A stretch of 64,000 bases of DNA from an uncultured Gammaproteobacteria bacterium (GCA_964448705.1 CAYUZS010000004.1:20105-84104), one strand, 5' to 3'; positions 1 through 51,104 are shown, numbered from the stretch's first letter. Numbers and translations are program-made. Notes: a model not told the origin generated them from the sequence alone.

Positions 1-495
1 GTCCTCGGCAAAGCTGCTGTCCTCAACTCCGAACTTGGGGATATCGAAACTCCTCGAGTAGTCTTCGACGAGCACACTCAAAACACCTACCTTTTTAATA
101 ATTGTTTTAATTCTTTTTTTCCTTTCCAAAACCATCAGGGTTCTATACTCACTAATCAAAAAGCCGTCACCGTTCTTGGTACTTTTTTGGAAAACGAATC
201 CCTTTTCCAGAAATATTTTCAAAATAATCTTACCGTGATTGAAATGGAATCCGGTCCGTACCTCTCTGCCATCACCGAGGCCACCTACGATCAACAGCTC
301 CCCCGCCACACTCTTGTCGACCTTCACACTGCTCCCTTTGATGTTGGAATCATTAACTATACCTCAGATACCCCCTATTCTCAGGCCAAAAATCTTGGCA
401 CTGGTTCACTGGAATTAAACGGTGCCGAACCTGTTTATCTCGGCACCCTCGCTATATTGCAGCGCATCATCAGTCTCGAAGAGTCTCGGAAATAA
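1..495 (+). CDS. 5'-partial CDS; C-terminal ~165 aa of an unidentified protein
   Basis: Frame 1 is open from nt 1 to the TAA at 493-495. Track ORF 187..495 is its tail. 'VIEMESGPY' weakly recalls the phosphorylase-superfamily motif; this is not decisive. Confidence 0.35.
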   Translation, partial: VLGKAAVLNSELGDIETPRVVFDEHTQNTYLFNNCFNSFFPFQNHQGSILTNQKAVTVLGTFLENESLFQKYFQNNLTVIEMESGPYLSAITEATYDQQLPRHTLVDLHTAPFDVGIINYTSDTPYSQAKNLGTGSLELNGAEPVYLGTLAILQRIISLEESRK

Positions 496-508
496 AATTA
501 GAATTTAC

Positions 509-2446: not shown

Positions 2447-2497
2447 CTGCCCATTATACCATTCCGATTCAAATTAAACCTTTATTTTTCCTCTTTA

Positions 2498-2740
2498 TTA
2501 ATCTCCGCATTTTCTCTGATTATTCCCCGCAGACCCCTCATGTATCTTCTCGGCATACTCTGTCAACACCTTATCCAATCCTTTTTTTGAAACATTTTGA
2601 CTAGACGATTTGGCAATATCACTTAATTCATTATATAAAATTCTCTTTGGCGTTCCTTGCGTCACTCCTCTATCAATATCCCCCAAAGTTGGTTTTATAC
2701 TCATCTTATCTGCTCCTGCCACAATTAATTCTACTCTCAA
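2498..2740 (-). CDS. hypothetical small protein (80 aa)
   Basis: ORF only. 4-nt overlap with the upstream RNHCP gene suggests co-translation. No recognisable motif. Confidence 0.3.
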   Translation of the reverse strand: MRVELIVAGADKMSIKPTLGDIDRGVTQGTPKRILYNELSDIAKSSSQNVSKKGLDKVLTEYAEKIHEGSAGNNQRKCGD

Positions 2741-3075
2741 TTATTAATTAATTTCAACAATTCTTCTCTATCATCATTTTTATCGGCCTTAACCGTAAAT
2801 TGATGTTGGCACCCCAAACATTTATATTGAATTTTATAATCTCCTTTTTCATATAATACTCTCAGTGGTTCCATCATTTTTCGACAAGTACTTGCTCTGT
2901 CGCCGGGGATTTTTTCATCCACATGTCTTCCCCATAAACATTTTGGACAATGATCCGTATATCCGTTTCCTTTTATTTCCATTCCGCATCTGCCGCACTT
3001 AAAGTCCTCCACTTTTCGAACGAAGTTTCTTCTTTCTTCTTTATCAAAATATCGGTCCGAAATTAATTTCTTCAT
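2737..3075 (-). CDS. RNHCP-domain zinc-ribbon protein
   Basis: Cys pairs 'CGRCG', 'DHCPKC', 'CLGCQ'. The 'YTDHCPKCLWGRHVD' block matches my recollection of the RNHCP (PF12647) signature. Confidence 0.5.
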   Translation of the reverse strand: MKKLISDRYFDKEERRNFVRKVEDFKCGRCGMEIKGNGYTDHCPKCLWGRHVDEKIPGDRASTCRKMMEPLRVLYEKGDYKIQYKCLGCQHQFTVKADKNDDREELLKLINN

Positions 3076-6047
3076 TTGCTGATTTCTACTCCCATTTTAA
3101 TATCTCCGCTTAGTTTTTGATTAAACAACAGCTTACCGTTAACTAAAGATGCCGATGGTTCCACTTGAACTGGTTGCCATTCATTTGGTATAGATACCAG
3201 CGACACCAGTGCCGTATCTCCAAATCCCGATTGTTTTTGTATGTAATCCAGATACGAAAAAGATTTTTGTTTGCTCAAATTAAGCGAGTCTGCATACCGG
3301 ATTTCAACTACTCTCTTACTCCCGGTCGGTACTGTCACCAGAAATCCGATTTCCTTTTTACCTTTAATTGTATTAATCGTTAAATCATTGCTTTGTAATA
3401 TTTTTTTAGCTCCTTCATTTGTTTCAGATACACTAACTTCAGCCAAATTCGAGCTCTCCGGAATATAAACTCTTAGATAGTTTTTATAGTCACCTCCAGG
3501 CCAACTTTTGCTGGTTGAAGTATTTTCATAGGTAATTTTCACCACTCTTCCTAAAGTGTTTTCAGTAATATCCACTGTCTGATCAATACTTCGATAAATA
3601 AAATAGTTTGCCTTGTTTACCCCAAAATTAGATTCCACCACATACAGATAATCTGCAAAACATTGATCGGTTGCGCATTTTCCGTTATATATCGCCCCAT
3701 TCCAACCCAGGTTTGCCACTATCGCTGCCGTCTTACTGTCGTTCAAAGCTATTTGAATTTCATTATTTTCCAGCATTCGTATCATCGCCTTCGCCAACAG
3801 TAACTTTTTTTCCGGTTTTAATGTTTTTATCGATTCAAACAATTGTTTACCCACCGCTCCCAGAAAACTTGCCTTTTGTGTCGAGCCGGGAAAAGAATTG
3901 GTCTCCGAATAAAACTCCGCCTGTTCATATAAATTATCCTTATTAATTTTTTCCTTAAAATCGGGTACATAAATTTCACCCACCACTTCTAGTAATGCTT
4001 TTGCCACAGCCAAATTAACTCCGATCACTCCATCAACTTTTCTTCCGGTTTCTTTTTCCAAAAACCATTGGATATCTTTCGCTGCTGTCGGGAAATCTGC
4101 TTGCCAATTAGCATCCCTCATAAACCAATTCGCCTCTCCGAGATGATTTTTTATCGGCAAAGGTGGTTCTACATGACCTTTCAATTGGCCGTCTGCTTCA
4201 TAAATATCTTCAACTTCAAAATTCAACAGCTTTCCTCCTTCAAAATTCAAAGCTGCCCACGAACCTATAAATCCCCCACCGGCCCTAAGTTCACTTTCAT
4301 TTTGTAAAAGCACCATATAATCTTTTCTTTTCCCCTCAACCCCAATAATTTGTGGAATAAAATCCATCGATTTTTCGGCTAAAGATACCAGTTTTGTTGC
4401 CTCATCGAGTTGGTTTTTAATTATATTAAGATTGTTTTTCCATCTGCCCGGAAGCCAGTTCCAATCACCCGATAATCTTGCCTGCAATATACCTAGATCA
4501 CTTTCTCCATTTCTCAAATCATCCTTTAATGCCGTTAATTCTTCATTCCACTTAATATCTTTATCAGTAAAAATGGCTTCACTAATCTTTTCTGCTCTCT
4601 CACTCAAACTTATTACCTTCTCGCTTAAAACCAAAGACTGCTCCGCTATTTTTAGTCCTTCCTGATATCTTCTCCCCCACAACCATTTATTTCCTCCCCA
4701 ATTATCTATTGTAATTTCTTCTTTTCTTACCGTGTTTATTGTCTTCTCTGCCAGATTACTGGCTTTCTTAAAATCTCTGTTTTCAACTAATTGTCGAACT
4801 TCTAATATATTCCTGACTATTTGATAATTTTTCAAAATAAATCCCATTCCTAAAATCACAATTAAACCTAAAATACCGGCTGCTATCAAAAGACCGTATT
4901 TTTTGGCTCCGGTTTTAATACCTCCCAACTTTATTTTTGGTTTTTCTTCCGGCTTTTTTTCTTCATTAATTATTATTTGCGGCTTCAACTCCAACACCGG
5001 TTTTTCTATCTCTTCTTTTTTCATTATCAGCGGTTTAATTTCTTCATACTCTTCTTCAATAATCTTGTCATCTTCGGCATAATTTTCTTTTACATTTACC
5101 TCTTCAACCTCATATTTCACTGTCTCTTTTTCTTTAGGTTCCTCTTCAACCATCACTTCAAACCTTTTATCGGGTTTCTTCACTTCTACTTCTTCTTCTT
5201 TAAAATCTTGATAAACCGGATAATCGTTCACCGTTTCTTGTTTCAGAACTTTCACTGTTTCTTTATTATTTTTCTTCCGGCTCTCTTCGTCAATTTTGCT
5301 GAAAAAATACTGTAAAGTTTCTTCTATACCTTCATCAAATTCTACTGTTGGTTGCCATCTTAATTTTTTCCAGTTTGCAAACACCTCCTCACTCTCGGCT
5401 GACGTTAAATTGAATTTCTTTTCTTCAACCTTAAATCTTGTCATTTTCCCTTTATCAATCAATACCTTCGCTATTTCTTCTGAATTCGTTTCTTTTCCCC
5501 AAACACTAAAAGTTTCATATTCTGTCCCCGACAAAAAAGTAGCCCGTGAAATAGCTTCCTTTATATCCTCTATTGCCAGCAATCTTAAACTAACGTTTTT
5601 TTCCGGTAGCCTTAAGTTCTTATTAGCCACGGTTAATTTAATCGCTTCGATTAAATAATCTACTTCTCTGGTATTTTCTTTCTCTTGATCAATCCCTGCT
5701 CCGTAAACACCGTGTATATTCACAACTCTCCAATTAGTTTTAACTCCTTTTAGTGCCATTCCCGGAACTATTGTTCGGTTAACCCCTACAACTGTCAATT
5801 TCGCTTTATCGTTCTCTGCTCTGGCCCAAGCTTCCTTACTTTCTTCAAAATCAAACCAGTAATTTGTCGATTCGTCAATTTCTCCTAAACTATTTCGAAA
5901 TTCTAAACCTGATATATACCCTATATTTCCGTTGTATTCACCTACACCATAGACCTTTATATCGTTCTGTATCAGTAATTTTGCCAGCTGAATCGCTCCA
6001 AATCTATCGATTCCGTTAATTACTGCTACTGGCAGTTGATTAGACAT
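3072..6047 (-). CDS. fusion protein: NAD-dependent epimerase/dehydratase-like Rossmann domain + K/E-rich linker + single TM + DUF4012-like C-terminal domain
   Basis: N-terminal ~250 aa resemble SDR/epimerase ('VNIHGVYGAG', C-terminal 'WQPTVEFDEGIEETL'). TM 'YGLLIAAGILGLIVILGMGFIL'. C-terminal region with 'LRAGGGFIGSWAALNFEGGKL' recalled as DUF4012. Confidence 0.5.
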   Translation of the reverse strand: MSNQLPVAVINGIDRFGAIQLAKLLIQNDIKVYGVGEYNGNIGYISGLEFRNSLGEIDESTNYWFDFEESKEAWARAENDKAKLTVVGVNRTIVPGMALKGVKTNWRVVNIHGVYGAGIDQEKENTREVDYLIEAIKLTVANKNLRLPEKNVSLRLLAIEDIKEAISRATFLSGTEYETFSVWGKETNSEEIAKVLIDKGKMTRFKVEEKKFNLTSAESEEVFANWKKLRWQPTVEFDEGIEETLQYFFSKIDEESRKKNNKETVKVLKQETVNDYPVYQDFKEEEVEVKKPDKRFEVMVEEEPKEKETVKYEVEEVNVKENYAEDDKIIEEEYEEIKPLIMKKEEIEKPVLELKPQIIINEEKKPEEKPKIKLGGIKTGAKKYGLLIAAGILGLIVILGMGFILKNYQIVRNILEVRQLVENRDFKKASNLAEKTINTVRKEEITIDNWGGNKWLWGRRYQEGLKIAEQSLVLSEKVISLSERAEKISEAIFTDKDIKWNEELTALKDDLRNGESDLGILQARLSGDWNWLPGRWKNNLNIIKNQLDEATKLVSLAEKSMDFIPQIIGVEGKRKDYMVLLQNESELRAGGGFIGSWAALNFEGGKLLNFEVEDIYEADGQLKGHVEPPLPIKNHLGEANWFMRDANWQADFPTAAKDIQWFLEKETGRKVDGVIGVNLAVAKALLEVVGEIYVPDFKEKINKDNLYEQAEFYSETNSFPGSTQKASFLGAVGKQLFESIKTLKPEKKLLLAKAMIRMLENNEIQIALNDSKTAAIVANLGWNGAIYNGKCATDQCFADYLYVVESNFGVNKANYFIYRSIDQTVDITENTLGRVVKITYENTSTSKSWPGGDYKNYLRVYIPESSNLAEVSVSETNEGAKKILQSNDLTINTIKGKKEIGFLVTVPTGSKRVVEIRYADSLNLSKQKSFSYLDYIQKQSGFGDTALVSLVSIPNEWQPVQVEPSASLVNGKLLFNQKLSGDIKMGVEISK

Positions 6048-6256
6048 ACGTTAATTCTAAATCATTTCACTTTCTTAAGCCTAGCGGTAAAAGTTCGGAT
6101 ATTATGCGGTTATTATCAATAATTTTGTTGTTAAATGTAAGCACGTGAAAAAACGTCATAACAGGTGTTGTTATATATATAAGTTTTGTTAGTACCGGGT
6201 AATTAAATAGTTATCGATTCGTAGCTATGAACTCAATCTATTTTTGAATTTTTTAC

Positions 6257-6291
6257 GTGTCAAAAATGTACTGACTGGACATTTTTGACAC
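6257..6291. promoter_or_regulatory. perfect 13-bp inverted repeat GTGTCAAAAATGT-N9-ACATTTTTGACAC
   Basis: Read directly in the intergenic region between the flippase gene end (6343) and the DUF4012-fusion gene start (6047), both on the minus strand. No U-tract follows on either strand. Confidence 0.4.
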
Positions 6292-6342
6292 TAAAAAACT
6301 GTCATTATTATTAAGGGAAAACTATCTCAAAAAAAAATGCTT

Positions 6343-7581
6343 TTACTCAGTTGCCAACGTCTTTGTTTTTTCTTGTTTCCACAAAAAATAGCTCATTGCC
6401 AATAAATCAATTGCTTCCGTAGCCACGGTCACTTTCGCCGCTCCGTACATTCCTTGATGGGGGATTATCAACCAATTTGCGATTACATTAAACAGTAATC
6501 CTATTACCCCCACCAACAACATCTTCTTTTGTCCGCCTCTGGCAATTAAAGTAAATCCCACTAAATGGCCAAAATAAGTAAAAGCACATCCCCATACCAA
6601 AATTCTTAATATTGTTGCTGCCGGCGCATATTCCGCTCCTGCCAACACCCAAACCATCCATGGAGCTAATACAGTCACTGCACAAACAATTATTATTACT
6701 CCCAATAAAATCAACAATAACGATGACATAAAAAGATTCTTTTTACCTTTCATTGTTGAAGACATCATTGGAAAAATGCTGTTTACATAAAAATAAGCCG
6801 GTTGAATCAACACTCCGTATATTTTGTAGGCCAATCCATAAAAAGCTACTTCAGTCGCACCCATAAAGTTTTGGATCATCATACTATCAACCATTCTGTC
6901 GTAAGCCGCAAACAACACTAAAAAAACTCCCATCGGCCATGTTTGTTGCCACAGACCTTTTATTTTTTCAAAATTCCACCTTTGTTGAAAATCGGTTTTT
7001 ACTTCTATTATTTCTTTGTAATTCTTCACCATCAGCCACCCTGAAATCATTGACAACACTCTGGCACCTAAATAAACCGCAAATACCCACATTAAATTTA
7101 CATGGCCTTTCCAAATTACCAACGCGCTCAAAAAGAGTAGGGGAAACAATACATCCACAATTACCTTTTTGTGCATTTTCAACTTACTTTGGAAAATAAT
7201 TTCTCCGACTCCGAATATTGACGTCAACCACACCATCACCAATGCCACTGCCGCCTCCACCCTTATTCCTTCAAATCCATTCCAAAAACAGACCACCAAC
7301 ATTCCCAAAAGCCAGGAAAAACCTGTCGTTAAAAATTTCAATTGCAATAAATTTGCTAATACTCTTTTTCCCTTAGAAACTTCTCTTATTCCAATCGTTT
7401 TTTCTCCAAAATCGGAAATCGCGTCCAAAAATACAAAAGTTGAGGTTATTAAAATAAAATACCCATAATTAGAAACTCCCAGTTTTCTGGTCACTATTCC
7501 TGTTGTCACTAAACTGATCAAAACGGTAATTGCCTTGCCTCCGATCTGTACCAGCGTATTCCAAATTGATTTTTTCAACAT
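6343..7581 (-). CDS. polysaccharide/oligosaccharide flippase (MOP/Wzx-type, Polysacc_synt family)
   Basis: 412 aa with about 12 predicted TM helices; N-terminal 'LVQIGGKAITVLISLVTTGIVTRKLG' is typical of Wzx/MurJ-like exporters. Confidence 0.55.
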   Translation of the reverse strand: MLKKSIWNTLVQIGGKAITVLISLVTTGIVTRKLGVSNYGYFILITSTFVFLDAISDFGEKTIGIREVSKGKRVLANLLQLKFLTTGFSWLLGMLVVCFWNGFEGIRVEAAVALVMVWLTSIFGVGEIIFQSKLKMHKKVIVDVLFPLLFLSALVIWKGHVNLMWVFAVYLGARVLSMISGWLMVKNYKEIIEVKTDFQQRWNFEKIKGLWQQTWPMGVFLVLFAAYDRMVDSMMIQNFMGATEVAFYGLAYKIYGVLIQPAYFYVNSIFPMMSSTMKGKKNLFMSSLLLILLGVIIIVCAVTVLAPWMVWVLAGAEYAPAATILRILVWGCAFTYFGHLVGFTLIARGGQKKMLLVGVIGLLFNVIANWLIIPHQGMYGAAKVTVATEAIDLLAMSYFLWKQEKTKTLATE

Positions 7582-7624
7582 ATTCCCATTTTACCCTTTA
7601 TTTTACTGACTGTTTTCGTTTATT

Positions 7625-8911
7625 TTACAATATTCCCAACATTATCGCCAAAAGCCATGTATTTTGTGGCAAAGTCAACCAGTAATGGTCTGTCATTCCG
7701 CTGATAATTACCAATCCCAGCCACCACCAGTTGTTATTATTTCTTTTTCTTTTTAAATTTACGATTAGTTTCCAGCTCACTGCTAATAGTCCCAAAACTC
7801 CGATTTCCGATCCTATTAACAGGAAAACATTATGAACCGGTTGAAGCCAGTTAAAATATCCACCCGAATTGTATTTATCTAAATTAGGGATAAAATTCCC
7901 CGCTCCGACTCCCACCATTAAATTACTCTTCCACATTCTGATTGCCGCCAGGTTCAATTCCATTCTTTTATTCCATCCGTCAATATCCCATCCTCCCACA
8001 AAATCACTTATTCTATAATTCACATTTACTATGCTTGCTGTTAAAATCATTACCCCGACTATCACTATCAAATATCCCCATTTAGTTTTTAAGGAATCTT
8101 TCTCTTTAAAAAATTTCGTATAAATCAACACTAATAAAATCAAAGTTAACAACCAAACTGTCCTGCTTCCGGAAAGAACAATCGCCAATACACCACACCA
8201 CACCACTACCCACCACCAAATTTTTTTTAAAGTATTTTTTTGTGGTCGGATTTTATCGTCAGTAGGGGAGTATTTGTTTACCCACCAACTCAAACTTATT
8301 AAAATAAATCCCGCCAAACTGTTTGGATGGGAAAACGTTCCATAAGCTCTCACTAAACCCTCTCCCCACACTGATATCTGAGCAATTCCGATTGTTGTGA
8401 AGTCAAATCGTCTTTCTCCCAACCACCACCAAAAACCTTGTAGACTTCCTCCCTTTATCACTTGAGACAGTCCTAATATACTTTCCGTTACTATCCAAAC
8501 TGGAATAACTAATTTCAAAAATTGATTTACACTTTTTCTGTTATTCCAGACATATTTAAACATCCACCACCACTGACCTAATCTTAACCACCGATAAACT
8601 GCTGTTGGTTTATTTACCGCTACCAAAATATTTATCACTATAAACAAAAACCAAACTAGATTTTCAAAATTCAATACTTTTTTAATTAACCCCCTTATAT
8701 TCGTTCTTCTTAGCCGCCCCAAAAACAAAATAATCCACCCAATGTCGATTAAATATAAAGTCGGGGACAAATAATCAATTCTTATTCCTTTCACCAAACT
8801 CCAATTCGGCCAAAAATGTTTTCCCAACTGTGTGGGTATCAGCAGCATTACCAAAAATAAGCTCCATTTCTCCGCTTTTACCCAAAATCTTTCCACGCCC
8901 CATCTTAACAC
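7625..8911 (-). CDS. O-antigen ligase/polymerase-like (Wzy_C-type) polytopic membrane protein
   Basis: 428 aa, Trp-rich polytopic protein. 'GSRTVWLLTLILLVLIY' block resembles the Wzy_C region. Sits next to the flippase. Confidence 0.45.
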   Translation of the reverse strand: MLRWGVERFWVKAEKWSLFLVMLLIPTQLGKHFWPNWSLVKGIRIDYLSPTLYLIDIGWIILFLGRLRRTNIRGLIKKVLNFENLVWFLFIVINILVAVNKPTAVYRWLRLGQWWWMFKYVWNNRKSVNQFLKLVIPVWIVTESILGLSQVIKGGSLQGFWWWLGERRFDFTTIGIAQISVWGEGLVRAYGTFSHPNSLAGFILISLSWWVNKYSPTDDKIRPQKNTLKKIWWWVVVWCGVLAIVLSGSRTVWLLTLILLVLIYTKFFKEKDSLKTKWGYLIVIVGVMILTASIVNVNYRISDFVGGWDIDGWNKRMELNLAAIRMWKSNLMVGVGAGNFIPNLDKYNSGGYFNWLQPVHNVFLLIGSEIGVLGLLAVSWKLIVNLKRKRNNNNWWWLGLVIISGMTDHYWLTLPQNTWLLAIMLGIL

Positions 8912-8948
8912 AAAAGATAATTTCTTATAATCTGAATATCAGATTAGT

Positions 8949-9419
8949 TTATTCCTTGACTCGGATCACTACATGACGGTTTTCACCTTCACCTTCTGAT
9001 TCTGTCGTGATTCCTTCCATATCAGCCACCGCCATATGACAAATCCTTCTCTCGTAAGAACTCATGTTTGTCATCACTGCCGGATTACCGGTTGCTAATA
9101 CTTTTTTAGCCAAACCTTGTACCATATTTATTAGTCTATCCTTTTGCTCTTGACGATAATTATTTACATCCAATAATATTCGTACCCACTCACCAATTTT
9201 GTTTTTAACTGCCAATGACAACACTAATTGTATCGCTGCCAGATTTCTACCTCTAAAACCAATCAAACCGGCAGGGTTGGCTACTGTCAAACCAACTAAC
9301 ACCTGGTTTTCTTCACCCTCCATGTCTTCCACAAAAGCTTTATCGATTTCAAAATTCATTTTTTCCAGCATTTCACAGGTCAGCTGTAGGATTTTTTCGT
9401 TTCTCTCTTTATTATTCAT
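8949..9419 (-). CDS. jag: RNA-binding protein Jag/KhpB (KH + R3H)
   Basis: KH-like 'GLIGFRGRNLAAIQLV'; R3H-like 'MSSYERRICHMAVADMEGITTESEGEGENRHVVI'; lies immediately downstream of yidC as in Gram-positive-type origin regions. Confidence 0.8.
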   Translation of the reverse strand: MNNKERNEKILQLTCEMLEKMNFEIDKAFVEDMEGEENQVLVGLTVANPAGLIGFRGRNLAAIQLVLSLAVKNKIGEWVRILLDVNNYRQEQKDRLINMVQGLAKKVLATGNPAVMTNMSSYERRICHMAVADMEGITTESEGEGENRHVVIRVKE

Positions 9420-9461
9420 GTGCCTATTGTATCATGGCTTTAGCTTCAGATTTAACTTCAA

Positions 9462-10244
9462 CTAATTGCTGTTTTTATTAAATTTTCCCACTATTAATTG
9501 CTGTATCAGCATCACTCCGCTGTTTACAAACCAATACAGTAAAATTCCCAACGAAAAACTCCATCCGATAATGATCGTCATTATTGGCATCATGTATGTC
9601 GACTGCGTTCTCATCATCTCCATCATGTCATCTTCTTTTTCTTTTGTTTGTTTCACTGCTTTTTCATCTAATTTTGGATTAGGCATCATTAGTTTTGAAC
9701 TCCAATACTGTAAAGCTCCGGATCCGAGTAATAATAACAATGGCAATACTAAATTTAATCCTATTCCTTCACTAAAAGTCTTAGCCGGAGTATCGGATAA
9801 ATTGCTTCCCATAAAACTTGTATCAAATTTAAATTCCTGATTAATCTGAAAAGACGGTATTAAATTCCTATTTATTTCTTCAATTGTTCCTTTACCTATT
9901 GAATAATTTGTCACAATATTAAAAGCCGAAAAAAACAAAATTAACACTGCTACCTGTAAAAGTTGAGGTAAACACCCGGATAGGGGATTTATACCCTCTC
10001 TCTTATATAACTCCATTTGTTCCTTTGCTAATTTTTCTTTATCGTTGCCGAATTTTTCTTTTAGTTTATTAAGCTTTGGCTGCATCTCGCTCATTTTTTT
10101 GGCCGACTTCAAACTAGGTAAAACCAAAGGAATCAAAATTAACCTAATAATAATTGTCACCAATACTACTGACCAGCCTAAATTTCCTACCAAATAGTAA
10201 AAGCCGAATAAAGCATTGATAAACGGAGCCATTAGAATGTTCAT
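9462..10244 (-). CDS. yidC: membrane protein insertase YidC/Oxa1 (short form)
   Basis: 'GWSVVLVTIIIRLILIPL', 'GINPLSGCLPQLLQVAVLILFF'; conserved position after rnpA/yidD. Confidence 0.9.
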   Translation of the reverse strand: MNILMAPFINALFGFYYLVGNLGWSVVLVTIIIRLILIPLVLPSLKSAKKMSEMQPKLNKLKEKFGNDKEKLAKEQMELYKREGINPLSGCLPQLLQVAVLILFFSAFNIVTNYSIGKGTIEEINRNLIPSFQINQEFKFDTSFMGSNLSDTPAKTFSEGIGLNLVLPLLLLLGSGALQYWSSKLMMPNPKLDEKAVKQTKEKEDDMMEMMRTQSTYMMPIMTIIIGWSFSLGILLYWFVNSGVMLIQQLIVGKFNKNSN

Positions 10245-43944: not shown

Positions 43945-44442
43945 TTAGTTAACCACTTCAAGTTTCTTGGGAATTATGTCAAGTTTGTCGACATTAGGAA
44001 CTGTTTTTGTTCTCATCATTTCTACAATTAACTCCCGATATTCGGTTAACAGGATTCTTGTACCTGGAGTAAGGTTAAGTTTTACTGCCTCATCGATGGT
44101 AAACCAACCAATTTCTTGGCCTTCACCTGGTCCTAAAACAAATTTTGATTCCTCATTCTTATCGACAAAAACTACATATATCCAAACATTTTCGCCTAGT
44201 GAACCCTTAGTTTTTGTTATTAATTTAAAATCCTTTAGTTCGTAACTTACTTCTTCTTTAACTTCTCTAATCAAACCTTGTTCCGGAGTCTCACCTTCCT
44301 CAATACCACCCCCAACTAATTGCCAACAGTCCGGTGAACGAATAATTGGAATATTATCCCGGTGAAATAACAACGTTTTATTGGGACTCAGGATAATGAT
44401 TTTGGCACCGTCTTTAGATTTCATATTTCTTCCTCTTAACAA
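43945..44442 (-). CDS. Nudix hydrolase
   Basis: Nudix box 'GGGIEEGETPEQGLIREVKEEVS'. Confidence 0.8.
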   Translation of the reverse strand: MLRGRNMKSKDGAKIIILSPNKTLLFHRDNIPIIRSPDCWQLVGGGIEEGETPEQGLIREVKEEVSYELKDFKLITKTKGSLGENVWIYVVFVDKNEESKFVLGPGEGQEIGWFTIDEAVKLNLTPGTRILLTEYRELIVEMMRTKTVPNVDKLDIIPKKLEVVN

Positions 44443-44517
44443 TTAATTCATCCCACAAGCATTCGTTCACCTTCAATTTTAACATTACTATAGACTATTA
44501 TTTCATTAACACCACCC

Positions 44518-44619
44518 GAGTGGAGTAGGTGAGTCTGGAACTTTTATATCTTTATAGCCCTATATCTTATTATACCTTCCTTTGTAGCTAAATTAGACAA
44601 ATAAGACATTATAAAAAAG
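44518..44619 (+). repeat. repeat family B, copy 1 (diverged, about 75% to B2/B3)
   Basis: GAGTGGAGTAGGTGAGTCTGGAAC...TAGCTAAATTAGACAAATAAGACATTATAAAAAAG; collinear with B2/B3. Confidence 0.6.
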
Positions 44620-44670
44620 AGTCTCTAAGATAACGATATTGAGTGAACAATATGATATCTCAATAATTTT

Positions 44671-45141
44671 CTATATTATTTCAAACTCTTCCAATAACTT
44701 CTTCATCTTCTCTATCTGTTTGGGAAATATAAGATAAGTAGGGAGGTCTTTTGGATAAACCCATTTAATTGCTCTAATTTCATCTTCTTGGATACCTAAT
44801 TCACTTTCTTTGCCTGTAAATTTAACAAAAAATTGTTTTCTCTCTTGTCCTCGAAATACCGGCTTGTTGTCTTTAATCTTTTGATTTATTAATTCATCCG
44901 ACCATTCATAGCAGTCTCTTAATTCACTGGCTTTGATCACTTCAAATTTATCAATTCCCAACTCTTCACTTAATTCTCTGATAACTGCTACCTCCGGTTT
45001 TTCACCTTCTTCAATCCCTCCACCGGGAATATCCCATTCATTATCTTTATAGCTACATTTTTGGACTATCAAAATCCGCCCAGGCTTATCCATTATTACA
45101 GCACTAGTACTTTGTCTGTAAGTTAAGTTATCACGGTTCAT
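44671..45141 (-). CDS. Nudix hydrolase
   Basis: Nudix box 'GGGIEEGEKPEVAVIRELSEELGI'. Confidence 0.8.
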   Translation of the reverse strand: MNRDNLTYRQSTSAVIMDKPGRILIVQKCSYKDNEWDIPGGGIEEGEKPEVAVIRELSEELGIDKFEVIKASELRDCYEWSDELINQKIKDNKPVFRGQERKQFFVKFTGKESELGIQEDEIRAIKWVYPKDLPTYLIFPKQIEKMKKLLEEFEII

Positions 45142-45614
45142 TTTGATTTCAAACTATTGTCAAAAGTCTGTATCCAACCATCCCATTTTTCATTATTCAT
45201 CTCTACTTCTTCAAAATTGTTGTCAGTAAACTTTGAAATGAAATTCAACCAAAACATATGAGCATTCGGATTTTCTCTAATCTGCCTATTCTCCCATTTT
45301 CCAGGGAATTGGTTAAATACTAATTTGGCTGCCTCTGACCCGATTCCGTTATTCCGAAATTCTTTTTTAACATAAAACTCGGAAATGGTATTTCCTTCCG
45401 TTAAAATCAGTAGGTATGAGTTTATTAAGGCAAACCCAGCAATCTTCCCATCGACTTTTATAAAATATGGATACCTATTTGGTTTTTCCCAATAAGAATC
45501 TAGGTACTTATACTCTTCCGCTTTGTCACCAATAATCTCTCTTTCATAGTCCCAAAGCATATCCCTTAGAATATTTTTATCTTTAATATCAATTTGTTCT
45601 AAATTGACTTCCAT
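45138..45614 (-). CDS. GNAT-family N-acetyltransferase
   Basis: 'ISEFYVKKEFRNNGIGSEAAKLVF' is GNAT motif A; 4-nt overlap with the downstream Nudix gene. Confidence 0.6.
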   Translation of the reverse strand: MEVNLEQIDIKDKNILRDMLWDYEREIIGDKAEEYKYLDSYWEKPNRYPYFIKVDGKIAGFALINSYLLILTEGNTISEFYVKKEFRNNGIGSEAAKLVFNQFPGKWENRQIRENPNAHMFWLNFISKFTDNNFEEVEMNNEKWDGWIQTFDNSLKSK

Positions 45615-45634
45615 AAATAATTATAGCCCAAATA

Positions 45635-46192
45635 TTGGTATATAATTATTCAGAATTATCCGAAGAATACTTCATGATCAACCAATCTATTTTAACCACC
45701 ATAAACTGGCATGGCAATAAAGTCACCTACACCTGGATCCCTACTACTAAAATTAAAAAGTACCAACCCATCCGAAACGTGATTGGTCTTTGTCTAAACG
45801 ATAATCAAGAAGTTCTAATTTGCCGTGAAACTGAAGAAGAAGGTTGGAAGTTACCCGGAGGTCGCCCTGAAGATAATGAAACTCCAATTGAGACATTAAA
45901 ACGGGAGTTAATGGAGGAAGCTGATATTGAAGTAAACAATATAAAAGCTATCGGAACCCAACGTGTCGATTTTCCTAATAATCCAAAACAATCAGAAGGT
46001 GATTTGTTCTACCAAGTACGATATTTTTGTAAAATAGAAAAGATGTTTCCTCAAACTGTAGATCCTGATACTGGAGTGCTTTACGATCGAAAATTTGTGC
46101 CTCTTAGACAGTTGAACAACTACCTAAAGTGGGGAAAAATCGGAGATGCCATAATCAATAAAGTATTAGTAATTGAAAATATAAATGACTAA
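45635..46192 (+). CDS. Nudix hydrolase
   Basis: Nudix box 'GGRPEDNETPIETLKRELMEEADI'. Confidence 0.75.
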   Translation: MVYNYSELSEEYFMINQSILTTINWHGNKVTYTWIPTTKIKKYQPIRNVIGLCLNDNQEVLICRETEEEGWKLPGGRPEDNETPIETLKRELMEEADIEVNNIKAIGTQRVDFPNNPKQSEGDLFYQVRYFCKIEKMFPQTVDPDTGVLYDRKFVPLRQLNNYLKWGKIGDAIINKVLVIENIND

Positions 46193-46721
46193 TAAAACCC
46201 GAGACTGGCAAGAACTCTCCCGGGAAGAAGCTTTTAGAAAATATTCCCGTAAAATTGAGAAAGTAATTTTCAAACTACCCAACGGTAAAGAAACAGATTT
46301 TTACATTAAAAAAGAAGGTCCAACTGCTAGTGTTTTAGCCTTAACATCCGATAATCAAATAATTATTGCCAAGCAATATCGCCCTGGACCAAAAAAAATC
46401 CTGATGGAACTCCCGGGTGGTTTTGTTGACCCAAACGAAGCACCTGAAGTAACCATAAAACGTGAGTTACTGGAAGAAACTGGTTATGAAGGTGATATAA
46501 AGCTAGTTACCACCTGTCTTGATGATGCCTACTCTACGATGGAAAGATATTGTTTTGTTGCTACTAATTGTAAAAAAGTCAAAGAAATTGAGAATGGAGA
46601 GGACGAATTTACCGAGTTAGTTTTAGTTTCACTTAAAGAGTTTAAACAAATTCTTCGAAGTGGCCAAATGACCGATGTGGAAGTCGGATTCTTAGGGTTA
46701 GATTATTTAGGACTACTTTAA
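46185..46721 (+). CDS. Nudix hydrolase (ADP-ribose pyrophosphatase-like)
   Basis: Nudix box 'ELPGGFVDPNEAPEVTIKRELLEETGYEG'. Confidence 0.8.
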   Translation: MTNKTRDWQELSREEAFRKYSRKIEKVIFKLPNGKETDFYIKKEGPTASVLALTSDNQIIIAKQYRPGPKKILMELPGGFVDPNEAPEVTIKRELLEETGYEGDIKLVTTCLDDAYSTMERYCFVATNCKKVKEIENGEDEFTELVLVSLKEFKQILRSGQMTDVEVGFLGLDYLGLL

Positions 46722-47207
46722 ATGAGTCACCAAAGATTAATTATTCTCATGGGCTTGCCGGGTTCGGGCAAATCATACGTCGCGTCACATCTCCAACAAA
46801 AATATGGTTTTATTACATTGTCCGGTGAGGACATTGCTACCAAGTTATTTGGAACTGAAAAACTGTCTGGTCAACAATATGCTCAAGTTTATAAAACAGT
46901 CCGGCAAAAAGCTTCTGAACTACTACAACAGGGATCTTCTGTGATAATTGATGGTACAAATCTCAAGAAACAATTTCGTCAACAAATTTATGACGAAGTT
47001 AAATGCGACCAAACAATTTTGATATATCTCAAAACCGACGATAATGTCGCTATGGATCGAATTTCAAAAAGAAAAAATTCTTGTTCCTCTGAAACATATC
47101 AAGCATTTAAGAACCAGATAGAGGAACCATTTCCGAAAGAAAATGCATTTATTTTGATCTCAGACAACCAGTTATTAGACAACATTGACAAAATAATAAA
47201 TGGATAA
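46722..47207 (+). CDS. P-loop nucleotide/nucleoside kinase-like protein (AAA_33-like)
   Basis: Walker A 'LMGLPGSGKSYVA'; 161 aa. Start abuts the Nudix stop. Confidence 0.55.
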   Translation: MSHQRLIILMGLPGSGKSYVASHLQQKYGFITLSGEDIATKLFGTEKLSGQQYAQVYKTVRQKASELLQQGSSVIIDGTNLKKQFRQQIYDEVKCDQTILIYLKTDDNVAMDRISKRKNSCSSETYQAFKNQIEEPFPKENAFILISDNQLLDNIDKIING

Positions 47208-47523
47208 GAATTTATTAGATAAATTAATTACCGAGTACAAACAACTCTTCGAAAACGTTTGGGAATTTGGAGGTGGTTATGGTTTTCGCTTTCATCATGG
47301 GGTTCGGGTTATGAAATATTGTCAAAAAATTGCTATGCTTCCCAGATTTAAAGACGAAAACATAAGTATTGAGGCTTTGCTAATTGCTGCCCTTTTCCAC
47401 GATATTGGTAAAATCGAAGCAATCGATAAAAATGGTCAATTAGTTTATGGTAATTATGGTGGTATTAGTCATGATGCTTTGGGAGCCAAAATCGCACCTA
47501 AATATTTTTGTTTAAAATACTAG
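47200..47523 (+). CDS. short HD-domain protein (possibly truncated)
   Basis: 'RFHHGVRV' and 'LFHDIGKI' His/Asp motifs of the HD phosphohydrolase fold; only 107 aa. Confidence 0.45.
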   Translation: MDKNLLDKLITEYKQLFENVWEFGGGYGFRFHHGVRVMKYCQKIAMLPRFKDENISIEALLIAALFHDIGKIEAIDKNGQLVYGNYGGISHDALGAKIAPKYFCLKY

Positions 47524-47626
47524 TTGACTTCGTGTTTTCTTCGGTTATTATTATAAATAATAAAGCAAATAAAATAAATATCTCCTTGACCCATCAAGAT
47601 ATTAACAATATACTGACTATATTAAT

Positions 47627-48400
47627 ATGAAATTAAATATTATTTATAATAAATCTTCTGAAAAAATGACTGAAATAGAAGATAAAACTATCCAACTTGT
47701 GGTTACTTCTCCACCATATAACATAGACATCAAATATGGAAACAAATGGAAGGGGAGAAAAATAATTTCGTCTAAAGGTGATAAATATAAAGATAATATT
47801 TCTGAGGAGAACTATAGGAAAATGTTGAAAAAGGTTTTTGAAGAATCAAAGAGAGTTCTTAAAGATAATGGTTCAATCTTTCTGAATATGAAAACCAGAT
47901 ATGATGGAGACCAATTAATACCACCATTTTGGGTATTAGATTATTTTAAAGATATGTTTTTAAAAAATATCATCATTTGGAATTTTGACTGGGGTGGCTC
48001 AACTGAAAAAAGGTTTTCCTCAAGATACGAGTTTGTTTTTTTCTTTACAAAAAACAAAAAAAACTGGACCTTTAATTTGAATGATATTAAAATTCCTAGT
48101 TTAAATTATCGTCCAGACAGATATAAAACCCAACTAAAAAACCCAACTGATGTTTGGAAAATTCCACTAGTTAGTGGTAACTCTCTAGAGAGAACATCAC
48201 ACCCAGCACAATATCCAGAAAAACTAATTGAGAGAATTATTAAAGTATCAACAAACGCAGGTGATATTGTCTTAGATCCCTTTATTGGAAGTGGCACTAC
48301 AGCCGTGGTTGCTAAAAAATTGAAAAGACATTATTTAGGCTATGATACATCTTTAGATTACATTAATATTGCAAAAAATAGATTAAAGAATGAGTTTTAA
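47627..48400 (+). CDS. DNA amino-methyltransferase (N4C/N6A, beta class)
   Basis: Motif IV 'VVTSPPYN' is N-terminal; motif I 'LDPFIGSGTTAVVA' is C-terminal. Confidence 0.8.
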   Translation: MKLNIIYNKSSEKMTEIEDKTIQLVVTSPPYNIDIKYGNKWKGRKIISSKGDKYKDNISEENYRKMLKKVFEESKRVLKDNGSIFLNMKTRYDGDQLIPPFWVLDYFKDMFLKNIIIWNFDWGGSTEKRFSSRYEFVFFFTKNKKNWTFNLNDIKIPSLNYRPDRYKTQLKNPTDVWKIPLVSGNSLERTSHPAQYPEKLIERIIKVSTNAGDIVLDPFIGSGTTAVVAKKLKRHYLGYDTSLDYINIAKNRLKNEF

Positions 48401-48424
48401 TATAAAGTTATATAAATAATTAAT

Positions 48425-49204
48425 ATGCAAAAATATTACTTTGGCGATTGTAGAGATTTGATAAAAAATATTAAAGATAATTCTATAAATTTAGTGGTTA
48501 CATCTCCTCCTTATAATCTTCGTAAAAAATATGGTAAATATAGCGATGATGTAACTATAGAAGAATGGAAAAAATTAATATTTGAGACTACCAAGGAAGT
48601 AGTCAGAGTTTTGGCTCCAAATGGTAGTTTTTTTATAAATATATCCCCCATCCCTCAAAAAAAAACAAAAGAAATTATTCCATTAGACGCCCTTGCTTAT
48701 TCTATTGGGAAAGAGTGTGGATTATATCTTAGAAATTCTATTATATGGACTTTTAATAATATGCAAAATTGTTCAAACAGACTGAGTGGCAGATGGGAAA
48801 GTATTCTTTGGTTTGTTAAAGATATTAATAATTATGTTTTTAATTTAGATAAAGTGAGAGTTCCTTATATAACAAAAGGAGATAAAAGACTTGATCCAAA
48901 TGGAGGTAGAAACCCAACAGATGTTTGGTATTTTGATCGTGTAAATAATATGACTAAGAAAAAATTGGGGATAACGGATGCACCTTGTGTTTATCCAGTA
49001 CCAATGATAGAAAGAATATTAAAAATGTCTACAAAAGAAGGGGATAAAGTGTTAGATCCATTTTTAGGTAGCGGAACTACATTGGTGGCATGTTCTCGAT
49101 TAAAAAGAAATGGAATTGGTTTTGAATTAGATGAAAAATTCAAAACCATTATAGAAAAAAGGCTTAAAACCGAAACTGTTGTTCAATCTAGAATTGATTA
49201 TTAA
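48425..49204 (+). CDS. DNA amino-methyltransferase (N4C/N6A, beta class), second of tandem pair
   Basis: 'VVTSPPYNL' and 'LDPFLGSGTTLVAC'. Confidence 0.8.
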   Translation: MQKYYFGDCRDLIKNIKDNSINLVVTSPPYNLRKKYGKYSDDVTIEEWKKLIFETTKEVVRVLAPNGSFFINISPIPQKKTKEIIPLDALAYSIGKECGLYLRNSIIWTFNNMQNCSNRLSGRWESILWFVKDINNYVFNLDKVRVPYITKGDKRLDPNGGRNPTDVWYFDRVNNMTKKKLGITDAPCVYPVPMIERILKMSTKEGDKVLDPFLGSGTTLVACSRLKRNGIGFELDEKFKTIIEKRLKTETVVQSRIDY

Positions 49205-50310
49205 ATAGCATTAACACGAAAAACGTCATGGTTATGAAAAGATAATTGTGCCCTTGCGTTATAGGTTTCCTTACTAGAATTACCACTTTGGTGCAAAAGA
49301 ATATTATTAAGAATAATTTCCATTTCAGAAACTGAAAATATTGGTGTCGAATATTTTTTATGTAAATTAAGTATTTGAATAATTGTGTCTGGTTTAATTC
49401 GGTGAAGTTTTTTTTCAATATAATCAAAATAGCCGGATTGTGCGGTACCTTTTGTATTTCCGTCTATAGATCTGTTCATTGGTGTTGAATTGTCAACAGA
49501 AATATTTTCTCCGTTGTATATTTTTTTAATAAAATTACTATTTTTAATACCACCACATCCTAAGAAATGTATAAAATCGAGAGATTTAAATGGTATTGAA
49601 TTGTTTAACTGTTTAACTGTTTGTTCAATAGATTTGCCTTCTCTAGTTAATCCACCGACTGCAATTTTATTTGGAATATATTTTAATAAACCAAGAAATT
49701 TTTTAATCTGTTGAGGTGACCATGATCCATTTATTGTTGTTGCTATGTGTCTTTGGTCATTACTTAAAAGTAAATAAAGTTTATTTGCATATATCGCATT
49801 GCGTTCAATTAAAACATCTTGATGTGTACCATTAAAAATACCTGTTTCAGTTTTTTCTGATTGTGTTCTTATTTTGAATGGATTAGGAATGTCAAAAGAA
49901 ACTGCTATATCAATTTTTGATGTTATTATGACTTTTGCATATTTTTCTAAAATTTTTTCACTATCTACAAGATTATTAAACTCATTAATAATCCCTCCTG
50001 GATCAGATGTTTTGTTATGTACTATGTAGTTTACTATTTTAGAAGTTCCAGAATCCAAAAATAATTTTGTCTCTGATAAAACAGAATCATCAGAAACATT
50101 ATTTGCTAGCCATGATCTCATATTAGTTGTGTTTGACCATATTGATGTTTTAATTAAACTATTGATTGATGCGTGATTAAAAAATAAATCCCCAAATTTT
50201 AGTAAAACTTTATTTTTTAAGACCATTGGCATTTTGTTTTTCCAAATTCTTTTTACCCCATTCCAATCCCCGGCTCCACCACCAGCACTGTAAATATAAT
50301 AATAATTCAT
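49201..50310 (-). CDS. TGT-fold protein (queuine/archaeosine tRNA-ribosyltransferase / DpdA-like base-exchange enzyme) lacking the C-terminal zinc cluster
   Basis: 'LFLDSGTS' matches the TGT 'LTDSGGFQ' Asp block; 'IAVGGLTREG' matches 'YAVGGLAVGE'; 'HFLGCGG' matches 'LMGVGKP'. The two latter motifs are 32 residues apart here versus 33 in E. coli Tgt. No CxCxxC...H motif. Confidence 0.5.
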   Translation of the reverse strand: MNYYYIYSAGGGAGDWNGVKRIWKNKMPMVLKNKVLLKFGDLFFNHASINSLIKTSIWSNTTNMRSWLANNVSDDSVLSETKLFLDSGTSKIVNYIVHNKTSDPGGIINEFNNLVDSEKILEKYAKVIITSKIDIAVSFDIPNPFKIRTQSEKTETGIFNGTHQDVLIERNAIYANKLYLLLSNDQRHIATTINGSWSPQQIKKFLGLLKYIPNKIAVGGLTREGKSIEQTVKQLNNSIPFKSLDFIHFLGCGGIKNSNFIKKIYNGENISVDNSTPMNRSIDGNTKGTAQSGYFDYIEKKLHRIKPDTIIQILNLHKKYSTPIFSVSEMEIILNNILLHQSGNSSKETYNARAQLSFHNHDVFRVNAI

Positions 50311-51104
50311 GATTTTAATTTATTTATTAATTCTTCAAAATTACCCATTTCGTGCAATGGTGGATAGAATTTTTCTGAATAACCAACCTTTGCAATTATT
50401 TTATAATTAGACATTTTAAAATCTCCATCTCTTTTTTTTCTTATAAATTCAATTGGATTATTATTTAAATAATCTGATATTTGCTCATTAGTATTAAAAA
50501 ATATCCCTTTTAGGTCAGGGAAATCGACCCAATGAACATAATAGACAGGTCTTTCTAATTCTGCATCTATTTCTATAAGCTGTTTTTTTATTTTTTCTGT
50601 ATCTAGTGTAATAGATCCTTCATAAGGTTCTCTATTTAAAAGTTTCCAAGATAGCATAAATGGAGCATTATGATATTTTAATTCTATATAAGCTTTTATA
50701 TTTCTCGTTTTGTCTAAAACTTGTATATCTGGTAACCTTCTGTTTTTAATATCAGCTCTCATCGCAAATATTTTTTTTGAATTTAGATAATCAATGAAGG
50801 ATTCTTCAAATTGTTTTCCTAATTGAACATCTAGACCTTTTATGGATTTGTTTCGTGGAGTCAAATAAAATTTTCTCGCTCTTTTATATAAATCTTCTAG
50901 GTCTGGAACCTCTTTATACAATTGAGGTGTATTTTTTATTAAAGATCTATCAGCAATATCTTCGTACATTTTTTTATAACATAGCTGATTAATATCTTCG
51001 AATTTTAGTTGATTTTCAAAAACAGGAACATTTTTTAAATATTCGATTTTAATTTTTTCAGTAAACTTAAGTAATTCTCTGTAACTATCTATGCTTTTAT
51101 CCAT
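50307..51104 (-). CDS. PD-(D/E)xK-fold nuclease; putative restriction endonuclease
   Basis: 'RLPDIQVLD...IKAYIELKYH' gives a PD...ExK arrangement. Convergent with the two MTases; 4-nt overlap with the TGT-like gene. Confidence 0.45.
   Translation of the reverse strand: MDKSIDSYRELLKFTEKIKIEYLKNVPVFENQLKFEDINQLCYKKMYEDIADRSLIKNTPQLYKEVPDLEDLYKRARKFYLTPRNKSIKGLDVQLGKQFEESFIDYLNSKKIFAMRADIKNRRLPDIQVLDKTRNIKAYIELKYHNAPFMLSWKLLNREPYEGSITLDTEKIKKQLIEIDAELERPVYYVHWVDFPDLKGIFFNTNEQISDYLNNNPIEFIRKKRDGDFKMSNYKIIAKVGYSEKFYPPLHEMGNFEELINKLKS

Follow-up and report, generated by a model that had tools for sequence, protein, structure and literature searches.

A zinc-less TGT/DpdA-fold protein encoded beside a PD-(D/E)xK nuclease in a mobile restriction-modification cassette

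Genes of the cassette and the two methyltransferases

Positions 47627 to 51104 of a 64,000-nucleotide (nt) stretch of DNA from an uncultured Gammaproteobacteria bacterium (GCA_964448705.1 CAYUZS010000004.1:20105-84104), referred to throughout as the window, hold a four-gene restriction-modification (RM) cassette in which two DNA methyltransferases are accompanied by a PD-(D/E)xK nuclease and by a protein with the fold of tRNA-guanine transglycosylases (TGT) and of the DNA preQ0 insertase DpdA, which we call the TGT-like protein. Open reading frame (ORF) calls reproduce, in both coordinates and strands, the layout given in a preliminary description of this DNA, with the methyltransferase genes facing a minus-strand pair. 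M1 (47627-48400, plus strand) encodes 257 amino acids with SPPY at residue 28 and FIGSG at residue 219, and M2 (48425-49204, plus strand) encodes 259 amino acids with SPPY at 27 and FLGSG at 213. On the minus strand the nuclease gene (50307-51104; 265 amino acids comprising an N-terminal helical region and the nuclease core) is the first of an operon in which the gene for the zinc-less TGT-like protein (49201-50310; 369 amino acids) is the second, and the 4-nt overlap of stop and start that had been proposed for this pair can be read directly in the sequence as ATGA. M2 and the TGT-like gene are convergent, with their stop codons overlapping in the palindrome TTAA (49201-49204) and no intergenic terminator, so that their transcription must either collide or run into the opposite gene. 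The G+C content is 0.28 over the cassette as compared to ~0.35 around it.

The promoter of the nuclease/TGT-like operon would lie in the intergenic segment 51105-51373 (minus strand), which in the window copy contains no gene for a controller protein (C-protein) and in which a -10-like element, gaggtataat, is found ~35 nt 5' of the nuclease ATG. The intergenic segment 5' of M1 (47524-47626, plus strand) contains two promoter-like sites, TTGACT-16-TATTAT and TTGACC-17-TATACT, which are consensus matches only, at 10 of 12 positions each. A scan of promoters and terminators gave nothing above chance, the whole region having fewer such sites than its shuffles.

Both M1 and M2 are, as had been suggested, amino-methyltransferases of the beta class. 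They match the Pfam family PF01555 (N6_N4_Mtase) with E-values of 1.4e-59 and 3.1e-54, respectively, SPPY lies ahead of FxGSG in each, which is the beta-class order, and both match Type II methyltransferase models of PADLOC (E 5.5e-58 for M1 against MTase_II). The SPPY motif is typical of N4-cytosine methyltransferases and makes N4-methylcytosine the likely product of M1 and M2; the closest solved structure to M1 is a DNA cytosine-N4 methyltransferase (8s9m, E 4e-31). M1 matches the orthologs of M2 only at E ~1e-40, so that M2 is of a separate lineage, and it is predicted from their sequences that M1 converts cytosine to N4-methylcytosine in one strand of an asymmetric site and that M2 methylates the other strand.

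Fold and conserved residues of the minus-strand proteins

The 369-residue TGT-like protein has no match at E-values up to 1 in Pfam or NCBIfam and none in PADLOC. Searches of PDB sequences with the single protein and with a profile of its family retrieved no TGT sequence, and alignment of the family profile with E. coli Tgt alone, using hhalign, gave nothing useful. The family numbers 215 matches in a word-indexed search and 38 among 1.84 billion cluster representatives, with zero matches from tblastn against plasmid and phage collections.

A structure model computed from 37 sequences (predicted local distance difference test score, pLDDT, 91.8; predicted template modelling score, pTM, 0.90) has a TGT-type (beta/alpha)8 barrel, in line with the TGT/DpdA fold that had been assigned to this protein in the preliminary description. 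In a Foldseek search of the PDB the model finds DpdA first (E 5e-7), the top 29 matches are all DpdA, TGT or QTRT structures, and in two independent structure searches the match to TGT/DpdA structures is clearly above that to other TIM barrels. At the level of sequence, homology to the TGT superfamily is visible only transitively, through two metagenomic fragments, P0252 and P0253, and through a zinc-type sister family that is described below. The profile of the zinc-less family matches P0252 and P0253 at library-wide E-values of 6e-7 and 4.5e-6, respectively, and hhalign assigns 97% probability to each pairing; P0253 is above the Pfam TGT gathering score (39.1 bits as compared to 26.3, E 6e-10) and P0252 just under it (23.1 bits, E 4e-5). 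Profile-profile alignment of the zinc-less and zinc-type families extends over 296 columns with a probability of 98.1% and an E-value of 7e-14. Both lines of evidence, structural and transitive, place the protein in the TGT/DpdA fold. It belongs to the TGT/DpdA fold superfamily, and not to the Tgt or DpdA families themselves: DpdA (PDB 7ui4; NF041059) is its closest structure, yet it has no match to NF041059 or to the PADLOC DpdA model, and relative to Tgt (PF01702, TIGR00449) it is without a significant direct match, without the zinc site and without the Phe/Tyr at position D+4.

The three blocks from which the relationship had been proposed, DSG, AVGGL and G-x-G-G, are found at residues 86-88, 217-221 and 251-254 (GCGG), and all are conserved. 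D86, D140 and D273 are invariant in the 37 TGT-like sequences and align to D99, D145 and D279 of the Pfam-positive zinc-type family. When mapped to E. coli Tgt via the alignments D140 corresponds to the base-binding Asp (D143) and D273 to the covalent nucleophile (D264), while D86 is the counterpart of the general acid/base, its tie to E. coli Tgt being by the LLDSG/LTDSGG motif only, via P0252. The base-binding GGL and LMGVG segments of Tgt have their counterparts in IAVGGL and HFLGCGG, and both the GG(L) base-binding backbone and a TP-x-(N/R)-R segment following the nucleophile are conserved in the TGT-like families as well. According to PMC10164549 none of the three Asp residues varies in Tgt or DpdA, and guanine exchange requires all of them.

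The Zn-binding CxCxxC..H cluster of tRNA-directed Tgt is absent, as had been stated, and since the protein contains a single Cys (C252) there can be no zinc site of this kind. The CNCPFC of the zinc-type family aligns to STP(I/L)FS in the zinc-less family, and the HN motif retains its His (H359). DpdA, in contrast, has a structural CxCx2Cx22H zinc site that is given as conserved in the DpdA family in passages of PMC10164549.

The 265-residue nuclease likewise has zero matches in Pfam, NCBIfam and PADLOC, and its family comprises at least 98 proteins. Its proposed identity as a PD-(D/E)xK enzyme is confirmed by the residues P125-D126...E141-x-K143, invariant in 37 homologs, and by the predicted fold (AlphaFold2 model, pLDDT 90.3), for which Foldseek returns the Hje resolvase (1ob8, E 1e-4), HincII, lambda exonuclease and the SPARDA nuclease. 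Both proteins of the operon are basic, with computed isoelectric points of 9.5 (TGT-like protein) and 8.9 (nuclease).

Recurrence of the cassette in other genomes

Nuclease and TGT-like genes are adjacent in 26 of 26 informative loci; two methyltransferases are present in 24 of these and at least one in 25, the pair being found wherever the contig is long enough. In the 19 loci that encode a zinc-less TGT-like protein the nuclease adjoins it in every case, and distinct M1 and M2 orthologs are found in all except locus L018, where the available DNA ends after M1. These 19 loci come from Clostridium perfringens, Aliarcobacter, Lachnospiraceae, Oscillospiraceae, Bacteroidales, Prevotella, Rikenellaceae, Kordia, Myroides, Flavobacterium, Calditrichota, Saccharibacteria and a metagenome-assembled genome (MAG) labelled Rhizobium. 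Identities to the window copies are 42-52% for the TGT-like protein, 31-68% for the nuclease, 64-72% for M1, in which SPPY is kept throughout the 19 loci, and 60-73% for M2, which is present in every locus whose DNA reaches far enough. The recurrence of the four genes together in related loci establishes that the cassette is not a chance assembly, and that the TGT-like family does co-localise with RM genes elsewhere, a point on which the preliminary description had made its proposal depend. It is the linkage that is conserved rather than a fixed gene order, the methyltransferase pair being convergent or co-directional depending on the locus and the TGT-like gene preceding the nuclease in L009. 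The spacing between nuclease and TGT-like genes in these other loci is either an overlap or a gap of at most 29 nt. Taken over both forms of the TGT-like protein, the hosts include Firmicutes, Bacteroidota, Saccharibacteria, Campylobacterota, Calditrichota, Chloroflexota, SAR11, Methanolobus, Micrarchaeia and a Lokiarchaeon.

These data bear directly on whether the TGT-like gene might be a housekeeping tRNA-guanine transglycosylase, or else an unrelated gene beside an ordinary RM system. No other tgt is seen in the 64-kb window, which is in favor of a housekeeping role; the protein is, however, below every curated Tgt threshold, and its family is tiny, has no members in the plasmid and phage collections searched, and is spread sporadically across phyla, always in the same cassette and in a low-GC island, whereas bacterial tgt is found in the context queA-tgt-yajC and not in a mobile RM cassette. 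On the basis of the 26 of 26 linkage both housekeeping function and chance adjacency were rejected, and we consider either to be extremely improbable; the concern that this might be the organism's only housekeeping Tgt is answered by the same linkage and by the sub-threshold Tgt scores.

C-proteins in Type II RM systems delay the expression of toxic restriction (R) genes. A gene for an HTH_3 controller of this type precedes the nuclease/TGT-like operon, in the same orientation, at 13 of the 19 zinc-less loci (L003 4953-5159; L014 4522-4779; L009 5376-5588; and ten further loci), and is absent from L001, L002, L006, L008, L019 and L020 as it is from the window copy. In one locus nuclease and TGT-like genes have decayed together. 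The nuclease of L020 (a Dorea MAG, 5405-8500) lacks part of its N-terminus and the TGT-like gene is frameshifted into ORFs of 165 and 244 amino acids, with fragments of a transposase-like ORF from an insertion sequence (IS) lying between it and M2, while both M1 and M2 are intact. Loss of nuclease and TGT-like genes with retention of the methyltransferases is the usual path of R-gene decay.

Nine loci, mostly from Bacteroidota, contain an extra gene of ~140 amino acids that separates the C-protein gene from the nuclease/TGT-like genes (L014 4781-5206; L009 5581-5997; also L010, L011, L012, L015, L016, L017 and L018). Pfam and PADLOC scans of its product are blank; a jackhmmer search seeded with it converges on the nuclease family, and a weak hhalign match pairs IPKHILLDHTRNIHSYLIFCK with LPDIQVLDKTRNIKAYIELKYH. 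Judging from this alignment, the protein seems to be a paralog of the PD-(D/E)xK core that has lost its catalytic activity, in which PD has become PK and ExK has become FCK, and it is possibly a third restriction-side subunit.

The cassette is horizontally mobile, as is clear from its low G+C content and from its neighbours, which include the IS fragments noted above. In Aliarcobacter (L002 1-5600) it is flanked by the genes for a resolvase and for a Rep3 replication initiator, and a phage-type integrase (L032 11371-12246) is ~3 kb from the cassette in another locus.

In a search seeded with P0253 a sister family of 412-430 amino acids was obtained, mostly Pfam-TGT-positive and with an invariant CxCPFC...HN zinc motif. 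The same cassette, with a member of this zinc-type branch, is found in Chloroflexota, Methanolobus, Micrarchaeia, a Lokiarchaeon (rearranged), a metagenome contig and SAR11 (L028-L032, and L033 5001-8655 from Pelagibacter). The accompanying nucleases are orthologs of the window nuclease (E 1e-68 to 1e-104) with PD...ExK intact, and M2 orthologs are found at E 1e-95 to 1e-125. The M1 slot of three zinc-type cassettes is filled by a different SPPY N6_N4 methyltransferase of ~500 instead of ~260 amino acids (L028 8084-9589; L031 2604-4121; L032 8089-9585). An EVE-domain gene lies beside the methyltransferases of L028 and McrBC lies near L031, a defence-island setting. Some zinc-type members bear the Joint Genome Institute (JGI) label 'queuine/archaeosine tRNA-ribosyltransferase', which is probably a misannotation. 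Genes of this kind should not be annotated as tRNA-ribosyltransferases, nor should they be taken as evidence of 7-deazaguanine in DNA.

The three catalytic Asp residues are invariant in the zinc-type family as well, and the motif blocks are present in the single Pelagibacter sequence, and it is from this conservation that we argue for retained chemistry. It might nevertheless be that the TGT-like protein is a non-catalytic partner whose role is to bind or bend DNA, to flip out a base so that sequence or methylation can be read, or to serve as a scaffold for a nuclease that does all of the cleavage, in the manner of QTRT2, which is described as non-catalytic, for QTRT1, or of Cap10 for CdnD. 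We regard such a role as improbable given that the Asp triad, the GG(L) backbone and TP-x-(N/R)-R are kept in two aligned families and that the blocks recur in a SAR11 sequence at ~23% identity, an observation that is hard to explain without chemistry. An additional candidate, the invariant K91 (DSGTSK), was considered as the Schiff-base residue of an apurinic/apyrimidinic (AP) lyase and down-weighted, as it is replaced by Arg in the zinc-type family and by Asn in the SAR11 protein.

Possible role of the TGT-like protein and setting of the cassette

The preliminary description had left two options for the TGT-like protein, self-marking of host DNA by base exchange or restriction. Genomic context favors the second: the gene is translationally coupled to that of the nuclease, the pair lies behind a C-protein gene in most zinc-less loci and decays jointly in L020, and there are no preQ0 genes. 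Our preferred reading is that the TGT-like protein belongs to the restriction side as a catalytic subunit and that it acts on guanine where the sites are unmethylated, and we assign to this reading a probability of roughly 55%.

The lack of preQ0 genes nearby, reported earlier, extends to the whole window: no homolog of QueC, QueD, QueE, QueF, FolE, QueA or Tgt was found in its 64 kb, and none is below E 0.1 either there or in 19 loci with ~220 kb of flanks, in searches by phmmer --max with single E. coli protein queries, an approach of limited sensitivity. DpdB and DpdC, for their part, are not seen in the Pfam-annotated neighbourhoods of the cassettes. In Dpd systems DpdA is associated with the DpdB ATPase and DpdC and/or with preQ0 synthesis genes (folE, queC, queD, queE), and the cassette shows none of these partners.

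Self-marking after the fashion of DpdA, in which guanine in host DNA would be exchanged for a salvaged or host-made 7-deazaguanine or for some other base, is the alternative that deserves most attention. The exchanged base would then be a third protective mark beside the two methylations, and restriction would be left to the nuclease alone. The closest structure is, after all, that of a DNA preQ0 insertase, the catalytic Asp triad is intact, and the best curated-profile matches of the zinc-type branch are to DpdA (NF041059 and PADLOC DpdA), weak as these are at 14-27 bits with a cut-off of 200. Some phage DpdA proteins are also without part of the zinc site (PMC5699537), and bacterial Dpd clusters, according to passages of PMC10164549, draw their preQ0 from the queuosine pathway of the host. 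Yet two strand-specific methyltransferases are already enough for an asymmetric site, and the TGT-like gene is in the nuclease operon and not in that of the methyltransferases, stands behind the C-protein gene in 13 of 19 loci, and in L020 has degenerated along with that of the nuclease, both methyltransferases being retained. No DpdB, DpdC or preQ0 gene was found at any locus searched, and a donor base is not assured in Saccharibacteria, Micrarchaeia and SAR11 hosts, whose metabolism is reduced. Self-marking by 7-deazaguanine is thus the less likely of the two options, and we hold it to be unlikely overall, though less so than a purely non-catalytic role.

If the TGT-like protein does act on the restriction side, the following scheme can be envisaged. 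The cassette would be a mobile, Type II-like RM system for an asymmetric target, each strand of which would be protected by one of M1 and M2, probably via N4-methylcytosine. The restriction enzyme would consist of the two products of one operon, the PD-(D/E)xK nuclease and the TGT/DpdA-fold protein, and we infer that these form a complex, that DNA is the substrate, that guanine is excised and that the activity is sensitive to methylation. The TGT-like subunit would flip the guanine of an unmethylated site into a pocket formed by D86, D140, the GGL backbone and L250, and Asp273 would attack C1', as in Tgt and DpdA. Hydrolysis of the covalent intermediate by water would generate an abasic site; alternatively, the intermediate might persist as a DNA-protein adduct. 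Either outcome is proposed in place of exchange as the cassette brings with it no source of a 7-deazaguanine donor. The phosphodiester backbone would be cut by the nuclease partner. The more specific proposal contained in this scheme, namely a new class of restriction enzyme in which a TGT-fold subunit, without a donor, removes guanine or is trapped on C1' alongside a PD-(D/E)xK nuclease, is put forward only tentatively.

Several observations weigh against a catalytic restriction subunit. The aromatic residue at D+4 is replaced by Ser or Ala in the TGT-like family, and since Phe99 at this position in DpdA stacks on, or gates, the base (passages of PMC10164549), the base pocket must be altered. 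The cluster of Asp residues could bind metals instead. Dpd systems are supplied with preQ0 by the host, and base exchange may thus occur without que genes in the cassette. Finally, in the SAR11 cassette the TGT-like protein is only 23% identical to that of the window, as compared to 62% for the nuclease and 68-69% for the methyltransferases (68% for M2), values that are unexpected if the TGT-like subunit reads the target sequence. With nuclease and methyltransferases close to those of the window and a distant TGT-like protein, the SAR11 cassette suggests, from sequence comparison, that subunits have been swapped and that the restriction side is a mosaic. The SAR11 data also undercut an inference, now withdrawn, in which the TGT-like subunit was the better-conserved and hence the sequence-reading partner.

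Comparison with known systems helps to place the catalytic restriction subunit that we prefer. The cassette resembles Type II RM systems in that two PF01555 methyltransferases lie beside a PD-(D/E)xK nuclease, with C-protein control at the zinc-less loci enumerated above. DpdA functions on the modification side, whereas the TGT-like protein is coupled to a nuclease and two methyltransferases and stands on the restriction side. R.PabI has a 'half-pipe' fold and excises adenine at a palindromic site with no nuclease partner. The likeness to the R.PabI family of restriction glycosylases lies in restriction activity by methyl-inhibited base excision, in place of or on top of phosphodiester hydrolysis (cited in passages of PMC12707154), which is only predicted here. 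The cassette differs from R.PabI in having a TGT TIM barrel, guanine as the expected base, an obligatory PD-(D/E)xK partner and a probably asymmetric site, and no PabI structure is among the Foldseek matches listed for the TGT-like protein. In BbvCI both subunits are PD-(D/E)xK nucleases, each responsible for one strand, whereas here there is one such subunit, of 265 amino acids, and the other has the TGT fold. Features held in common with BbvCI are two R genes in one operon, two strand-specific methyltransferase genes and an asymmetric site (passages of PMC12707154). Cap10 of the type IV cyclic-oligonucleotide-based antiphage signalling system (CBASS) (PDB 9ntn; bioRxiv 10.1101/2025.04.06.647259) is similar in being a zinc-less TGT-family protein with an obligate defence partner, but structurally it is much more distant from the TGT-like protein than are DpdA and TGT.

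What sets the cassette apart from known RM systems is a restriction-side component of a new type. The arrangement had struck the preliminary description as unfamiliar, and in keeping with this we found no TGT-fold restriction subunit and no DpdA-like defence nuclease partner in full-text searches of the literature, REBASE excepted. Both restriction-side families are unannotated in Pfam, NCBIfam and PADLOC despite the intensive mining of restriction enzymes. Should the TGT-like subunit prove to be catalytic, Tgt/DpdA chemistry would extend from nucleic-acid modification to attack, RM systems would have a new type of effector, and a site-specific guanine-excising or strand-specific DNA tool could be obtained. 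If the subunit acts as in the more specific proposal above, 'restriction glycosylases' would have arisen twice, independently, in evolution, and this would be the first use of Tgt/DpdA chemistry to damage foreign DNA instead of modifying RNA or DNA. These predictions are directly testable in cultured hosts, which include Clostridium perfringens (GCA_900447085.1), Prevotella phocaeensis SN19, Kordia zhangzhouensis MCCC 1A00726, Myroides albus BIT-d1, Flavobacterium solisilvae SE-s27, Methanolobus psychrotolerans and Aliarcobacter cryaerophilus.

In the window the neighbours of the cassette are NUDIX, GNAT, kinase, HD and HIT genes. Immediately 5' of M1 is an HD-domain ORF (47200-47523) of 107 amino acids that spans positions 1-70 of the 116-position HD profile and that may have been truncated on insertion of the low-GC cassette. 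Further upstream, Nudix-box-like motifs (GG.xEEGE...REL.EE.G) are present in four consecutive ORFs (43945-44442, 44671-45141, 45635-46192 and 46185-46721). The region 43945-46721 has a GNAT-like ORF among these Nudix-like ORFs, with an AAA_33 kinase after them, and so forms an unusual cluster of nucleotide-hydrolase genes beside the cassette; the Nudix and GNAT assignments were read from the translations. At the far end of the window, positions 1-10000, the GC skew calculated in 2-kb windows is -0.32 to -0.42, as compared to ~0 past 45 kb, and where the skew is so strongly negative long ORFs follow one another on the minus strand.

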